Source: a virus
Lineage: Duplodnaviria > Heunggongvirae > Uroviricota > Caudoviricetes
Length of the DNA: 6,604 bases
Virus record (IMG/VR): IMGVR_UViG_2917849834_000003
Reading direction: 5' to 3' (one strand)
This document shows positions 2,094 to 6,604 of this stretch, one piece after another. Both the position numbers and the translations under genes were made by a program. How positions within the stretch are numbered: position 1 is the first letter of the stretch; the number at the start of each line of letters is the position of its first letter. The notes beneath the pieces were generated by a model that had not been told where the DNA came from, searched no databases, and was given only the letters and a program-made list of their open reading frames with translations.

Positions 2094-2393
2094 TTATTCG
2101 ATGCGTACTCCTGGTATTTCGCCTTTTGATATTGCTAAGTCATAAATTTGCGCGGCACTATACCCATCTCGCATCCATGAATCCAAGGCGCGAACAGCCT
2201 CGCTACGCTTTTTATCTTCTCTCTCATTTTTGATATCAACGAGGACATCAACGCAATTAAGGCAAATGTGGATTTTGTCCTTACATTCGATCATGGCGGC
2301 TTTACCATGATTTCCGCCACACAGTGAGCATAAATCTTCAGGGTCCGGCTGGTATTTCTGTAACGTTAGATGGTTGAATGTTGAACAGACCAT
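2094..2393 (-). CDS. Hypothetical small Cys-rich protein (CxxC...CxxC, possible zinc ribbon)
   Basis: ORF with three in-frame ATGs; the one at 2393..2391 has GGAG with 6-nt spacing. Two CxxC pairs (CSLCGG and CLNC) suggest a zinc-binding fold. No family recognised. Confidence 0.55.
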   Translation of the reverse strand: MVCSTFNHLTLQKYQPDPEDLCSLCGGNHGKAAMIECKDKIHICLNCVDVLVDIKNEREDKKRSEAVRALDSWMRDGYSAAQIYDLAISKGEIPGVRIE

Positions 2394-2403
2394 AATCATC
2401 TCC

Positions 2404-2430
2404 ATAAAACAAAACTCGCCGTAGCGAGTT
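2404..2430 (-). terminator. Putative rho-independent terminator after the 142-aa gene
   Basis: Plus-strand AACTCGC-CGTA-GCGAGTT (2413..2430): on the minus-strand RNA a 7-bp stem and 4-nt loop followed by UUGUUUUAU. It lies between the stop at 2476 and the next gene. Confidence 0.5.
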
Positions 2431-2475
2431 CAGATATAATTTCCACCAAAGGCAGTAGTTGCTTGATGCTAAGAA

Positions 2476-2904
2476 TTATTTAATATCTATTCCTGTAATA
2501 TCTTTTATCTTTTTCCTTGCCAAGCCTTTTGCTAGTGATTTTGAAACACTCATAAGTGTACTAATTCCCTCATCCTTAAAGTTTGTTTTTATAGCTTGCC
2601 AGACATCCTTTTGACGTAAGTCAGCAATAAAATCATGCCCTCTTGCTGTCAACCTTAGTGGTACTTCGATCCAACTATATCCAACACCTTCCCCTAACGC
2701 TTTGGACATTATATGACCGAACCCAGGTTTTCCATCAACCCTGACTATTAATTCGTAGTCACATAATAATCGCATATGGAAAATAAAATTTTGGTCATAT
2801 CTATTAAAGCCATTATCCTCTAGTTCACTAAGCATCGTGTCAGGGCCATGAGTTTTTTCGAATGCGATAAGTAGATCTTTTAGATATTGCTGGTCTAATT
2901 TCAT
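2476..2904 (-). CDS. Hypothetical protein, AT-rich moron-like gene (142 aa)
   Basis: ATG at 2904..2902 with GGAGG at 5-nt spacing. Composition is visibly much more AT-rich than the flanking genes. It has its own downstream terminator and a candidate -10 (TATAAAT at about 2931..2938 on the minus strand) plus a palindrome upstream. I faintly recall a phage DUF family with this N-terminal pattern but cannot confirm it. Confidence 0.6.
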   Translation of the reverse strand: MKLDQQYLKDLLIAFEKTHGPDTMLSELEDNGFNRYDQNFIFHMRLLCDYELIVRVDGKPGFGHIMSKALGEGVGYSWIEVPLRLTARGHDFIADLRQKDVWQAIKTNFKDEGISTLMSVSKSLAKGLARKKIKDITGIDIK

Positions 2905-2914
2905 TGCCGCCTCC

Positions 2915-2926
2915 GTGACATGTCAC
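2915..2926. promoter_or_regulatory. Perfect 12-bp palindrome GTGACATGTCAC, candidate operator between a putative -10 and the RBS of the 142-aa gene
   Basis: Exact dyad symmetry read directly from the sequence, located in the 28-bp gap between the 112-aa gene stop and the 142-aa gene start. Confidence 0.3.
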
Positions 2927-2932
2927 AGAGAT

Positions 2933-3271
2933 TTATATCATTAATGTTGTTTCGTGCCAGCCTTTGGTCACCCAGCATTGTGAGTCACCATTACACGGGC
3001 ATGAATTAACAGGAACTCTCTCGCCGCACTTACCGCAACGTTTTCTGCTGATCGATTTTATACGCCAGCGCACACGTGCATCATCCTGGCGGCTCAGTAA
3101 CGCGATGTACTCACCAAACTCGTAAGGCGCACGCCTGAAGCGACGCGTGGCACAGTCACGCTCCAGCATTTCAATTTCCTGAGCATCAAGTACAAGCTCC
3201 AGCTTACGCATACCGGATGATGCTTGCTTGGCTCTCTGATCGGCTTTGCGCTCTGCTGCTGATTTAGCCAT
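2933..3271 (-). CDS. Hypothetical small protein with a possible N-terminal ribbon-helix-helix-like segment and a C-terminal Cys cluster (CGKCG...CPC)
   Basis: ATG at 3271..3269 with AGGAAA upstream. KLELVLDAQEIEMLERD looks like a beta-strand plus helix of an RHH-type DNA-binding motif (inference). The C-terminal CxxC...CxC suggests a zinc ribbon. The overlapping ORF 3094..3423 in another frame starts with TTG and is rejected. Confidence 0.5.
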   Translation of the reverse strand: MAKSAAERKADQRAKQASSGMRKLELVLDAQEIEMLERDCATRRFRRAPYEFGEYIALLSRQDDARVRWRIKSISRKRCGKCGERVPVNSCPCNGDSQCWVTKGWHETTLMI

Positions 3272-3443
3272 TCTGCTTTTCCTGCATCAGGAGAAAGACA
3301 ATCATGGCGGCGCGGATGCTTCCGGTATCTCTTTATGCGATATTCCTCCTCTATAGCACATACAAGCAGCGAACCATCAACTGGAGTGAGTGAGGAATCG
3401 ACCACAAGCAACGCCCCTTGCAATATGCCTTCGCGGTAATGGC

Positions 3444-3534
3444 TGTCACCCGCGGAACAATTTATCTGCTGGCTGTATGAAAAGCCAGCAATACAACTTT
3501 TGCTGACTTTCCACCGTTAACGCGACACAACCTT
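3444..3534. repeat. Left arm of a long imperfect inverted repeat flanking the 233-aa gene cassette
   Basis: 3501..3534 is the exact reverse complement of 4488..4521 (34 bp). 3444..3471 matches the reverse complement of 4518..4545 with one mismatch and one 1-nt indel. The left arm carries about 31 extra bp (3472..3500) between the two blocks. Confidence 0.8.
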
Positions 3535-3619
3535 TGTTCCTGAGCTTCGCGTTGCAGAGCCGGTAATCTCCGTCTCTTTAAATTAAAAAGACGGAGACTA
3601 TTAAAAACTCATTAAAACA

Positions 3620-4321
3620 TCAGGAAACAACAGATTCCCCGTAAAACGCTACAGCCTGTGCAGGCTGGGAGTCCATATCATCATGGAGATCTCTGGAGTA
3701 TGGGAGGGAGTTGACTGTCGATATAAATATCCTGTCATTTTCTAAAGTGAAAATTTCTGATTTGAGACTACCAATATCACTATGTACAGGATTAGTCCAC
3801 CCACTAAATAGTAAAAATCCCCATTCCTGAAAAAGCCCGGAATTCACTTCACGTTTTACATCATGAAACATTTCTCCCGTCAGTTCATCGAAATGGACAT
3901 TATTGATATCGCGTCGTGCCGGGACAGTCCCTTTTTTATCCTCAATCCAAAACCATGCATTGTCAAATCTGTCCGACGTTGCGGTACGAGGTTTAAAGAA
4001 GCGATGAGGTTTAATTAAATAAGATGACACAAATTTCCCTGTGGCTTTATCCTTCGCAAAAATAACAAATGTTTTACCAATGCAGCTTTCATCAATATCT
4101 TTTGAAAATGACACCACGCCGTCCTGATTTACAGTCAGCGAATTGTCTCCCGCATTGGTGGCAACACTCCAGTCCAACGTATTATTATTGACAACATCAT
4201 TGTCAACCACCATCTGAAATGTCGCACCTGGAAATAATGTTTTCGGGAATGAACCATTAGCCATGTCTTCTTTTATATCGAAAACATGGTGGCTCACTAG
4301 AACACCGGTAATTTTTGGCAT
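3620..4321 (-). CDS. Hypothetical orphan protein (233 aa), AT-rich moron flanked by inverted repeats
   Basis: ATG at 4321..4319 preceded by AAGGAG with 6-nt spacing. AT-rich composition. No signal peptide or catalytic motif recognised. The N-terminal ~90 aa has an alternating beta-strand-like pattern (FQMVVDNDVV...LTVNQDGVVSF...FVIFAKD) that could be an Ig-like beta-sandwich, which is inference only. Confidence 0.65.
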   Translation of the reverse strand: MPKITGVLVSHHVFDIKEDMANGSFPKTLFPGATFQMVVDNDVVNNNTLDWSVATNAGDNSLTVNQDGVVSFSKDIDESCIGKTFVIFAKDKATGKFVSSYLIKPHRFFKPRTATSDRFDNAWFWIEDKKGTVPARRDINNVHFDELTGEMFHDVKREVNSGLFQEWGFLLFSGWTNPVHSDIGSLKSEIFTLENDRIFISTVNSLPYSRDLHDDMDSQPAQAVAFYGESVVS

Positions 4322-4487
4322 AAAAAACTCCTTATTTGTTTAATTGAAATGCGATCAATAAATTCGATCGCCAGAGAGATATTATTACTTTTACAAGAAT
4401 AAATGTTGTTATTTGTTTATTATAAAACAATCATCACCCAGAAAAGAAAAAGATGCAGCTCGTTAACAAAAACCTTTGTGGCATATT
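4322..4487 (-). promoter_or_regulatory. AT-rich upstream region of the 233-aa gene with a candidate sigma70 -10 (TATAAT on the minus strand at about 4424..4419)
   Basis: Very AT-rich 160-bp stretch. A perfect TATAAT hexamer sits on the minus strand about 100 nt upstream of the start codon. The -35 is poor, so the promoter call is weak. Confidence 0.3.
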
Positions 4488-4545
4488 AAGGTTGTGTCGC
4501 GTTAACGGTGGAAAGTCAGCAGATAAAATTGTTCCGTGGGTGACA
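4488..4545. repeat. Right arm of the inverted repeat flanking the 233-aa gene cassette
   Basis: Reverse complement of 3444..3471 plus 3501..3534 (see left arm). The arms sit about 950 bp apart and enclose the 233-aa gene and its promoter region. Confidence 0.8.
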
Positions 4546-4593
4546 ATCCATCACCCTGAGGATGCTGATATTGCCCCTTGCGCATCATGTGGA

Positions 4594-4804
4594 TTAATTC
4601 AACGCCGGCCAGTATCGTAGCCGTTCCATGAAATAGGTGTGCAAGTTCTCCGGTTGCTCACGGGCTACCTGTTCTGCAATTACCGGTATATTCATCCGCT
4701 CTTTGTAGGCAACGCCGCTGGCGGCCAGGTCAGCGTGATAATTCAGATTCGTGCGGGTAGAAAGCGGACATGACGCCGCTACCCGCGAGCTGAAAGTGCA
4801 TCAT
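4594..4804 (-). pseudogene. Probable frameshift-disrupted small gene (about 70 codons if restored)
   Basis: The minus strand reads AAGGAG-TTACCC-ATGATG (a perfect SD with 6-nt spacing), then an ORF of only 24 codons ([24 protein letters not shown]). A second frame is open across the same region and continues to a stop at 4596..4594 (..[48 protein letters not shown]). The span is 211 nt, which is 3n+1, and the region is GC-rich and coding-like. Confidence 0.35.
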
Positions 4805-4887
4805 GGGTAACTCCTTATATTTGATTGCATAACGAAAATGCCTCTCGTGAAGCATTATTGGTATGCGGTAAAGCCGCGCTCAGGCGG

Positions 4888-5136
4888 CTACTCTATTTCT
4901 TCTTCGAATGATTTTATTAGTCGGTCAATAACATCATCTGTTTCAATATCATTTCCGTCCGATTGCTTTAATACGTCTATTGATTCTGCTGCGGTAAATT
5001 CCATCGCTGTGAGAAACTCGACAATTGCACACTCAACGACATATCGTTCTTCATCTGTACGACATGAGATAAAAGAGCATTTAATTGCTGTTATTACTTT
5101 TTGTTTAAGCTCTGCAGGATAATCAGTTTTTATCAT
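4888..5136 (-). CDS. Hypothetical small acidic protein (82 aa)
   Basis: ATG at 5136..5134 with GGAG at 6-nt spacing. The product is strongly acidic, especially the C-terminus (DGNDIETDDVIDRLIKSFEEEIE). A GC hairpin overlaps the stop codon (4873..4888). No family recognised. Confidence 0.55.
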   Translation of the reverse strand: MIKTDYPAELKQKVITAIKCSFISCRTDEERYVVECAIVEFLTAMEFTAAESIDVLKQSDGNDIETDDVIDRLIKSFEEEIE

Positions 5137-5149
5137 CGTTCACTCCGTC

Positions 5150-5178
5150 AAAAAAATTGCCCTCACATTGGAGGGCAA
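5150..5178 (-). terminator. Rho-independent terminator (8-bp stem, 6-nt loop, U7 tract on the minus-strand transcript)
   Basis: Plus-strand AAAAAAA-TTGCCCTC-ACATTG-GAGGGCAA: on the minus-strand RNA the hairpin is followed directly by UUUUUUU. It lies between the IS end and the 82-aa gene, immediately upstream of that gene's RBS. Confidence 0.6.
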
Positions 5179-5316
5179 AGAAGATTTCCAATAATCAGAA
5201 CAAGTCGGCTCCTGTTTAGTTACGAGCGACATTGCTCCGTGTATGCACTCGTTGGAATGAATACACAGTGCAGTGTTTATTCTGTTGTTTGCGTGAAAAT
5301 GAAACCCGCTAAAGCG

Positions 5317-5339: not shown

Positions 5340-5410
5340 GGGTAAAAAAAGACAGGCATAGAGTTTTGTGATCTACTGATTTGTGCAACCAATTCAATGA
5401 GATCACTTCT

Positions 5411-6604
5411 ATGCCTGCTCGACAAGTATGCCAGAATTTTTTCCACGATGCGTTAGCACCGTTTCACAAATACCGACAAAATGCTTTGCTGGATGCCACC
5501 ATCGCTCTCATCAATGGCGCATCACTGACGCTGACCAGCATCGGGCGTTATTTACCCGGCCCGGCTCAGGTCAAAAATAAAATCAAACGCGTTGACCGAC
5601 TGCTCGGTAATGAATCTCTTCACCGCGATATCCCACTGATTTTCAGTAATATTATTGCCATGCTGACTAACCAGCTATCTCTTTGTGTCATCGCCGTTGA
5701 CTGGAGTGGATATCCATCTCAGGAGCATCATGTGCTCCGCGCCAGCCTGCTCTGCGATGGACGCTCGCTTCCCCTGTTAAGCTTGATAGTCCCGTCAGAA
5801 AAACAGCAGAACTCGCAGATACAAAAAAACTTCCTGGATGCTCTTGCCGAGGCTGTAAACCCTGTGGCCAGAGTCATAATAGTTACCGATGCGGGTTTCC
5901 AGAGTGCATGGTTCCGGCATATAAGGTCACTCGGATGGGATTTTATCGGTCGCGTCAGGGGAAATATCCAGATGCGGCTGGACAGCAAAGGTGAGTGCTG
6001 GTTCAGGCGTCAGGAGTTACAGGCCAGAAGCAAACCAGAATATCTGGGGACGGGTACATTTGCCCGTTCGGAATATGCCCGGTGTGATGGCCATTTTTAT
6101 TTGCATAAAAAAGAGCTGAAAGGCCGGAAGAATCGCCGTTCACGTTGCCGCATAGAGCGTAAATCCCAAATAAAGGATGGCCGTTCTTCGGCAAAAGAAC
6201 CGTGGCTTATCTTTAGCAGTACAAATGACTTTAAACCCCGGGAAATCATGAGATTGTACAGCCGTCGCATGCAAATCGAGCAGAACTTCCGGGATGAAAA
6301 AAGCGAGCGCTTCGGGTTCGCTCTGCGTGCCAGTTACAGTCGTTCCGTGGGAAGAATGCTGGTACTGAGCCTACTGGCGACGCTGAGTACAATTGTACTG
6401 TGGCTTATTGGCTATCATGCTGAAAACAAAGGATTACATCTGAGATATCAGGCCAACAGCATTAAAACACGGCGGGTAATCTCGTATCTGACATTAGCGG
6501 AGAATGTCTTACGACACTCCCCGCTAATTTTAAGGCGAACAGTGCTGAGCACGGTTCTTAATCATCTCGCCAAAACCTACCAGAATATGGTGTTGGTTTA
6601 TTAG
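5411..6604 (+). CDS. IS4-family (IS10-like) DDE transposase
   Basis: Conserved blocks align by eye to the IS10 transposase: LTLTSIGRYLP..IKRVDRLLGN, VDWSG (first Asp), VLRASLLCDGRS, IVTDAGF (second Asp), GWDFIGRVRGN, KGRKNRRS, SAKEPWLIF, YSRRMQIEQNFRDEKS (the Y-R-E-K signature with the catalytic Glu). The ORF track starts at a TTG at 5381; the first ATG at 5411 gives an N-terminal length matching IS10, so I take 5411 as the start. Confidence 0.85.
   Translation: MPARQVCQNFFHDALAPFHKYRQNALLDATIALINGASLTLTSIGRYLPGPAQVKNKIKRVDRLLGNESLHRDIPLIFSNIIAMLTNQLSLCVIAVDWSGYPSQEHHVLRASLLCDGRSLPLLSLIVPSEKQQNSQIQKNFLDALAEAVNPVARVIIVTDAGFQSAWFRHIRSLGWDFIGRVRGNIQMRLDSKGECWFRRQELQARSKPEYLGTGTFARSEYARCDGHFYLHKKELKGRKNRRSRCRIERKSQIKDGRSSAKEPWLIFSSTNDFKPREIMRLYSRRMQIEQNFRDEKSERFGFALRASYSRSVGRMLVLSLLATLSTIVLWLIGYHAENKGLHLRYQANSIKTRRVISYLTLAENVLRHSPLILRRTVLSTVLNHLAKTYQNMVLVY

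Follow-up and report, generated by a model that had tools for sequence, protein, structure and literature searches.

The stretch of DNA analysed here, in the following called the window, comprises 6,604 nucleotides of a Caudoviricetes record in IMG/VR (IMGVR_UViG_2917849834_000003) and carries a lambdoid prophage remnant, in which an integrase gene and xis on one side and a truncated cIII, an anti-restriction-like gene and an insertion sequence (IS) of the IS4 family on the other enclose a minus-strand gene for a 233-aa protein (Table 1). We show that this protein corresponds, as a stand-alone homologue, to the superdomain in which invasin and intimin end, where an immunoglobulin (Ig)-like domain, D4, is rigidly joined to a C-type-lectin-like domain, D5. 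An initial annotation, made from the sequence alone, had placed the gene in the variable region between xis and the rest of the early-left operon, which is correct for an element that is itself only a remnant, and had described it as an uncharacterised accessory gene with a candidate role in defence or anti-defence. The first part of this description stands. No PHROG or NCBIfam model matches the protein, and PADLOC-DB yields no family at E<=0.01 for it, three relatives and five neighbouring genes.

The relatives of the protein form a small family of 14 clusters among 5.8 billion proteins, all of them unnamed. Pfam PF21764 (Invasin_D4) covers residues 23-101 with 32.3 bits at a cutoff of 27, a match found in 14 out of 14 family members, and a phmmer search of the PDB sequences aligns residues 2-108 to residues 302-395 of invasin (1cwv_A, E=9.4e-8). 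Comparing a profile built from the family only with 1.84 billion representative proteins returned 52 proteins at E<=1e-3; outside the family itself, the matches (profile positions ~3-177) are the extreme C-termini of long proteins, e.g., P0022 (1139-1292 of 1346 residues, E=3e-10), P0031 (713-874 of 910) and P0042 (835-988 of 1029), and most of the long matching sequences that we inspected are clear intimin/invasin-type inverse autotransporters (P and L numbers are our handles for proteins and loci). The matches extend through the QEWG...GW part of the conserved D5 core motif, REVNxGLxQEWG...GW, and with D4 removed hhalign still ties the C-terminal domain to an invasin-type D5 (probability 88.7%, E=2.6e-6, 55 columns). 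A structure model with invasin-type tips added to the alignment reached a predicted local distance difference test score (pLDDT) of 87.4 and a predicted template-modelling (TM) score, pTM, of 0.87, and its full length matched 1cwv (E=2.9e-12, TM-score 0.66, 235 columns) and intimin 1f00 (E=1.5e-6) in Foldseek; because invasin-like sequences are part of its alignment, this model corroborates the sequence evidence and is not independent of it. A PDB match to a DpnI-like nuclease (E=0.17) was not reproduced with the family profile and was rejected. The Ig-like N-terminus that the initial annotation had seen is thereby specified as an Invasin_D4 domain, although it takes up ~45% of the protein (residues 1-106) and not a third, whereas the C-terminal domain, which had been considered unassignable by eye, is assigned to the C-type-lectin-like D5. 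The profile and structure searches that had been proposed thus led to the invasin/intimin tip, a whole-protein identity that had been missed in an account whose descriptive claims were otherwise right.

Investigating conservation along the protein, we observed that D4 and the lectin core are conserved, and that variability peaks at residues 111-130, 141-150 and above all 171-220, the hypervariable lectin loops. Two D4 loop insertions of five residues each are specific to the family and contain conserved D19 (13 of 14 members), M20 and D77/E78/C80 (14 of 14); like D138, H153 and E158, these family-conserved residues are absent from the invasin-type tips used for comparison.

The family is a free-standing variant of the invasin tip without export features. 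No leader or transmembrane segment was found in the 233-aa protein (maximum 19-residue Kyte-Doolittle mean 0.74), residues 2-9 already match the beta-strand with which invasin D4 opens, and no export signal is present in any of ~45 family copies, so that the absence of a signal peptide stated in the initial annotation is borne out, as is that of an enzymatic motif. Pfam returns only Invasin_D4 for the 233 aa, i.e., no LysM domain, beta-barrel or Big repeats. Single residues were mapped by a profile enriched with invasin-like sequences, which was used for mapping only, its E-value being circular, and whose numbering was validated (C907 at chain index 413, D911 at index 417). In all 14 members invasin C907 maps to the position of I126 and the second D5 cysteine to a conserved AQAVAxY strand; the D5 disulfide C907-C982 is therefore lost throughout the family, which fits a predicted folding in the cytoplasm. 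Furthermore, D911, the essential integrin-binding Asp of invasin, maps to K130, a position taken by N in most members, while the counterpart of D811 is N22, adjoining a 5-residue insertion; the invariant D138 was considered as a counterpart of D911 and dropped, because the mapping puts D911 on K130. The canonical carbohydrate-binding motifs EPN, QPD and WND do not occur in the 233-aa sequence either. With these residues and motifs missing, the protein does not qualify as an invasin that binds integrins, nor as a C-type lectin that binds sugars in the canonical way, and with Ca2+-dependent C-type lectins it has only the fold in common.

To our knowledge, invasin and intimin tips, textbook examples of extracellular receptor binders, always sit on an outer-membrane anchor. 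The D4-D5 part of Yersinia pseudotuberculosis invasin (PDB 1cwv) has the same tip fold, yet invasin is encoded by a chromosomal adhesin gene and comes with a signal peptide, LysM, beta-barrel and D1-D3, all absent from the prophage-borne protein, which differs, besides the exchanges and insertions described above, in its longer hypervariable D5 loops. Intimin D2-D3 of enteropathogenic and enterohaemorrhagic E. coli (PDB 1f00/1f02), which binds Tir, shares 11-13% identity with the 233-aa protein, which is unanchored and lies outside a locus of enterocyte effacement (LEE) or Tir context. Compared with type Ve inverse autotransporter adhesins in general, the C-terminal Ig plus lectin-like tip is present, whereas the Sec signal peptide, LysM/periplasmic domain, 12-stranded barrel and tandem Big repeats are not. 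ZirS/ZirU/SinI-type proteins, the nearest free-standing precedent, carry Sec leaders, in contrast to the 233-aa protein. These barrel-less Ig superfamily proteins (ZirS/ZirU with ZirT; SinI with SinH; Rat-like) are free-standing homologues of the passenger domains of intimin/invasin-type adhesins; their genes directly follow that of an inverse autotransporter, which is reported to secrete them (PMC4943183). An inverse autotransporter was found neither in the window nor within ±10 kb, and none was seen at L001, L003, L006 and L007. Short tip-only D4-D5 proteins with signal peptides also exist (P0030, P0046 and a 389-aa protein at L019), but they keep the D5 cysteine pair and have hydrophobic or lipoprotein-like leaders, both of which the family lacks. 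At L019, beside an emrE-like gene, the distant leaderless relative P0024 adjoins two signal-peptide proteins of 651 aa and 389 aa (2298-4253 and 6223-7392), the former with a weak Invasin_D3 match and the latter ending in a D4-D5-like tip with the cysteine pair; secreted and leaderless versions therefore share this locus.

The 233-aa open reading frame (ORF) is shown to be a real gene under purifying selection. It runs on the minus strand from an ATG, preceded by the ribosome-binding site (RBS) that the initial annotation had noted; no upstream extension is possible, the ATG being the first start codon after a stop. The ratio of nonsynonymous to synonymous substitution rates (dN/dS) is 0.14-0.42 for all family pairs with measurable divergence, with 0.22 between L001 and L014, two chromosomal, non-inducible remnants, and 0.82 between the window and a 94%-identical relative, a comparison with very few changes. 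At an overall identity of 40%, the family keeps the start codon, the RBS, the 5' region and 56 invariant residues. A silent cassette for tip swapping into a large adhesin was dropped in view of the conserved start codon, RBS and 5' region and the dN/dS below 1. The encoded protein is acidic (pI 5.1). The AT-rich composition claimed earlier is real, although modest and not unique: the ORF has a GC content of 40.7% (36.8% at third codon positions) vs 45.0% for the window, the intergenic region upstream of the gene has ~34%, and positions 2251-3000 are as AT-rich as the gene.

Within each subgroup, ~110-130 nt upstream of the gene are conserved across chromosome, prophage and plasmid-like contexts, including a TATAAT-like box and a hairpin, which indicates that the gene moves as a self-contained unit. 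In the window the TATAAT box lies at 4419-4424 and is a candidate promoter element only. The hairpin is found ~30-35 nt 5' of the start codon in both subgroups with different sequences (GCGATC...GATCGC vs TATTCC...GGAATA), with an equivalent at ~7925-7945 in L001, and may be a conserved element of the 5' untranslated region (UTR); a known RNA element was considered and dropped, as Rfam returned no match. The hairpin 3' of the gene has no T-tail and is therefore not a canonical terminator. Within the gene, a poly-A tract is interrupted in the window; in L023-L029, where it lies at ~6046-6056, it is A7 and in frame in L023-L025, and A8 in L026-L029, with a frameshift and a stop after 21 aa. This polymorphism reflects either slipped-strand ON/OFF variation or homopolymer sequencing error: the A8 alleles occur on different flank backgrounds, and since they all come from one genome batch they could be sequencing errors.

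Table 1 Features of the 6,604-nt window, ordered by position (ART, ADP-ribosyltransferase; CDS, coding sequence).
Feature	Position	Strand or place	Basis
Tyrosine integrase, 434 aa	1-1305	left of gene	Pfam
xis (DUF1233)	1351-1644	left of gene	Pfam
Phage transcriptional regulator, 112 aa, phrog_536	2933-3271	overlaps ORF 3094-3423	PHROG match
Mosaic block (regulator, humD', inverted repeat, cassette, inverted repeat, hot')	2958..4736		~97% identity among prophages with different integrases and flanks
humD remnant running on out of frame	3094-3423	overlaps regulator ORF	comparison with phage Chlobot
humD (P1 UmuD'-like) remnant, residues 33-82 of 130	3304..3453	minus	90% amino-acid identity
Left inverted-repeat arm, perfect core 3501-3534	3435..3534		LexA-box-like CTGTATGAAAAGCCAG at 3473-3488
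Hairpin 20 nt 3' of stop codon, without T-tail	3564..3600	minus	inverted-repeat scan, sequence
CDS, leaderless invasin D4-D5-like protein, 233 aa	3620..4321	minus	ORF list, Pfam, PDB-sequence match, dN/dS
C-type-lectin-like domain homologous to invasin D5, residues 107-233	3623..4003	minus	profile, hhalign, structure model
Ig-like domain homologous to invasin D4, residues 1-106	4004..4321	minus	Pfam PF21764; 1cwv_A match
Interrupted poly-A tract, codons 16-18, AAAAGAAG	4266..4276	minus	comparison with close relatives
5' region conserved with 70% paralogue	4322..4433	minus	homology to L003 stops at 4433; upstream alignment
RBS AAGGAG, 6-nt spacer to ATG	4328..4333	minus	sequence inspection
5'-UTR hairpin	4351-4371	minus	hairpin scan
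Right inverted-repeat arm, perfect core 4488-4521	4488..4560		without 29-nt LexA-box segment in window
Pol III theta (P1 hot-like) remnant, fused at ~4730-4737 to truncated cIII	4597..4737 (also given as 4794->4597)	minus	comparison with P1-like plasmid
cIII, 3'-truncated	4730-4855	upstream of 233-aa gene, same operon direction	phage Kapi1 comparison
Anti-restriction-like protein, 82 aa, phrog_14587 ('anti-restriction protein')	4888-5136	same operon direction	PHROG match
IS4-family transposase	5381-6604	pL side of prophage	Pfam

The whole element is a ~6.6-kb remnant, truncated by the IS4-family element on its pL side and located between a yedL-like acetyltransferase gene and fliE (L004, 7190-14653), an interval that is the site of intG in K-12. 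The exact 233-aa protein is encoded in GCA_004745155.1. As the flanking fliE-fliG segment is nearer to E. whittamii (96% identity) than to E. coli (~91%), the host is a non-coli Escherichia. In E. whittamii itself (L015), a 41%-identical paralogue without an integrase lies directly beside fliE, i.e., at the same chromosomal site as the window island. The region with the truncated cIII and the anti-restriction-like gene (4730-5290) is 98.6% identical to phage Kapi1, and phage Chlobot carries 97%-identical DNA annotated as 'UmuD-like protein' and 'transcriptional regulator', corresponding to the two overlapping ORFs in Table 1. The 233-aa gene resembles the lambdoid early-left (ea/b) morons in its position between cIII and xis-int, its AT-richness, its own RBS and its mosaic block; unlike known early-left morons, it belongs to no PHROG family and is encoded by no INPHARED phage.

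The flanking inverted repeats noted in the initial annotation exist, with a perfect core of 34 nt that extends to ~100 nt, but they do not always accompany homologues: they are confined to the ~94%-identical cassette lineage and absent at L001, L003, L006 and L007, and we consequently dropped them as a hallmark of the family. The arms are duplicated P1-like hot-humD SOS-box DNA, judging from the remnants of hot and then humD, which share a strand and follow each other as they do in a P1-like plasmid, in which the two genes have a LexA box between them. The 29-nt LexA-box segment of the right arm, lost in the window, is kept in L027, L029 and L012, and perfect CTGT-N8-ACAG boxes are found in the right arm of L027, L029, L012 and L023. 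SOS control of the 233-aa gene was dropped, as the LexA boxes lie in outward-facing arms, ~100 nt from the TATAAT box, and are missing from the upstream arm of the window. In L023 (IMG/VR prophage UViG_2913128013_000003, 2391-3502) the cassette is inverted between collinear flanks, with junctions checked base by base, whereas eight loci including L010 and L024-L029 share the window orientation, so that one of nine is inverted. No invertase is encoded among the window ORFs. With no invertase nearby and no such repeats elsewhere in the family, occasional homologous recombination between the arms is the simplest account. A 1,013-bp Logan contig ends inside the repeats, which is what any repeat exceeding the k-mer of the assembly would produce.

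The family is one of non-coli Escherichia. Within 185,579 species-representative genomes, it turned up in three species only, with five loci in Escherichia sp. E1V33, three in E. whittamii and one in E. ruysiae. It was not found in 50,697 phage genomes (INPHARED, tblastn), 72,556 plasmids (PLSDB) or 5,426 complete E. coli genomes, and BFVD yielded only generic Ig-domain matches (TM<=0.3) and no full-length match. A phage structural or decoration protein was rejected on the missing INPHARED, PHROG and full-length BFVD matches; homology to a structural or housekeeping phage protein, which had been named at the outset as what would speak against a defence or anti-defence gene, was likewise not seen in INPHARED and BFVD. 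The genomic contexts comprise lambdoid prophage early-left and nin regions, a plasmid-like contig, chromosomal islets between ybcH and emrE, and the site beside fliE. Up to five family loci occur per genome, and single predicted prophages can carry diverged paralogues in twos or threes, of which one lies near int/xis and the rest elsewhere on the same contig (L023/L032, L024/L035, L026/L037; L031, 346-1014 and 2805-3473; L037, 3538-4209 and 6001-6519). In some prophages the paralogues lie in tandem ~2.5 kb apart, and a ~43-45% paralogue is located in a nin-type region in E1V33 (L013) and in E. coli (L006).

One paralogue has a conspicuous neighbour. In L003 (8001-10034), L044 and L045, a 232-aa protein with 70% identity to the window protein is encoded 61-63 nt upstream of a co-oriented, leaderless Scabin/ScARP-like ADP-ribosyltransferase (ART) of 423-424 aa, which has beta-rich domains on its flanks and whose family comprises 5 clusters. 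In L047 and L048 the ART is disrupted by an IS and the D4-D5 gene is intact. Upstream of the ART in L046, its only distant homologue, there are IS remnants and no D4-D5 gene.

Taking these results together, we tentatively favour, with somewhat less than even confidence, the reading that the family consists of cytoplasm-folded, intracellular binding proteins in genetic conflict. Folding in the cytoplasm without the disulfide is suggested by the ORF that cannot be extended, the missing hydrophobic leader and the replacement of both D5 cysteines in every member, and action inside the cell by the lack of an export signal in any copy together with the persistence of constrained copies in chromosomal remnants without lysis genes; copies under constraint in such non-inducible remnants favour a benefit for the host cell over a purely lytic-phage function. 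The protein would act non-enzymatically and stoichiometrically, with the conserved D4 scaffold and lectin core presenting a binding surface made up of the hypervariable loops (~171-220) and the two D4 insertions, which Ig-fold topology would place at the end of D4 that is close to D5. Ligand specificity would then vary between paralogues, and the role would be to neutralise or sense a protein that belongs to a phage, a toxin or a competing element, an antitoxin- or partner-like relation to the ART being one concrete version. Several points weigh against this reading. Every characterised homologue acts outside the cell, no PADLOC or PHROG family matches the protein and the family members have no partner gene in common, and in view of the missing matches and partner the label 'defence or anti-defence' has no direct support. 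The D5 fold assignment draws on sequence homology and homology-guided modelling, and the structure model computed from the 14 family sequences alone has a pLDDT below 50 for residues 107-233. About a quarter of the examined loci are degenerate (L012, L016-L018, L026-L029, L037, L042), the kind of decay in close relatives that the initial annotation had named, together with a missing phenotype, as counter-evidence, although most copies are intact and under purifying selection. Moreover, all ART pairs belong to one island lineage with the same 329-aa integrase and may reflect shared ancestry only, and no ART remnant is present in the window cassette, whose homology to the L003 island ends 6 nt after the stop codon.

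The known homologues are also what lends weight to the main alternative, an action outside the cell, which we regard as rather unlikely: a protein folded in the cytoplasm without a disulfide and released by prophage lysis or a route of the holin/endolysin type would bind a surface receptor, be it as a soluble adhesin or lectin for the animal host, as a bacteriocin of the lectin-like kind aimed at related bacteria, or as the part of a binary toxin that attaches the neighbouring ART to cells. All known homologues are extracellular receptor binders, the variability is concentrated in the lectin loops as for receptor specificity, inducible-looking prophages of 40-49 kb carry the gene, an NlpC/P60 hydrolase is encoded just upstream in the plasmid-like context L007, and the leaderless ART next to the 70% paralogue has beta-rich flanks as in many secreted toxins; leaderless lectin-like bacteriocins (LlpA), which prophages or tailocins carry as cargo, provide a precedent. 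However, none of the ~45 copies has an export signal, intact copies under constraint sit in chromosomal remnants without lysis genes (L001, L014, L015), and both the integrin-binding residues and the EPN, QPD and WND motifs are missing. A type III effector was rejected, as there is no unstructured N-terminus and residue 2 already lies in D4 strand A. That the window copy is an orphan antitoxin, immunity or regulatory partner of a Scabin-like DNA or nucleotide ART, protecting the lysogen or phage, appears improbable; the tight co-oriented spacing, the paralogue kept intact where the ART is disrupted and the presumed need of a producer to neutralise an active leaderless ART argue for it, while pairing within a single lineage is not independently replicated, the distant ART has no D4-D5 gene upstream, no ART is found near most family members, the window copy among them, and few would expect an antitoxin to combine an Ig with a lectin fold. 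The inverted repeats could, in addition, be the ends of a programmed phase-variable ON/OFF switch, since both cassette orientations exist and the A7/A8 polymorphism in the same gene would likewise switch it. This we consider similarly improbable, as no invertase lies next to the cassette, the arms are ordinary hot-humD intergenic DNA with a 34-nt perfect core in ~100 nt that suffices for occasional RecA-mediated inversion, an inverted cassette is seen in only one of nine loci, no other family locus has the repeats, the 5' region stays with the gene whichever way the cassette is turned, and the A8 alleles may be errors. A wider proposal would make the family a new class in its own right, of mobile adhesin tips that lack a leader, fold in the cytoplasm without a disulfide and are set free by prophage lysis to act on other cells, either as a lectin-like bacteriocin or as the receptor-binding half of a phage-borne binary toxin with the neighbouring Scabin-like ART; the hypervariable lectin loops would diversify receptor specificity, and cassette inversion and poly-A slippage would toggle expression. 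This proposal is about as doubtful as the antitoxin. Least probable of all is a decaying relic of a phage-captured adhesin fragment, functionless in this island, to which the IS-truncated 6.6-kb host element, the truncated or frameshifted relatives and the dN/dS of 0.82 (few substitutions) would point; the window copy is full length with an interrupted poly-A tract, and the constraint on codons, translation start and 5' region across the family argues against it.

The family represents an invasin-tip module that has been freed of anchor, leader and disulfide and is yet under selection on mobile elements, i.e., an adhesin tip reusable as a soluble scaffold. If its target is a phage or toxin component, it would add a new fold to the conflict proteins; a protein released to bind cells would instead be a phage-borne lectin, bacteriocin or toxin subunit of a new kind, in a group, the non-coli Escherichia, that has received little study.

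The shuffling of morons, too, is illustrated here, by a cassette that is built from SOS-box DNA and prone to inversion. In E. whittamii L012 (6001-6396), at a different chromosomal site, a deletion has cut off the 97%-identical copy after residue ~122 and fused it to a fragment of a lambda-like integrase, and in E1V33 a degenerate copy (L018, 4861-6397) lies upstream of and divergent from the chromosomal umuDC, echoing the umuD/humD-derived arms of the window cassette.

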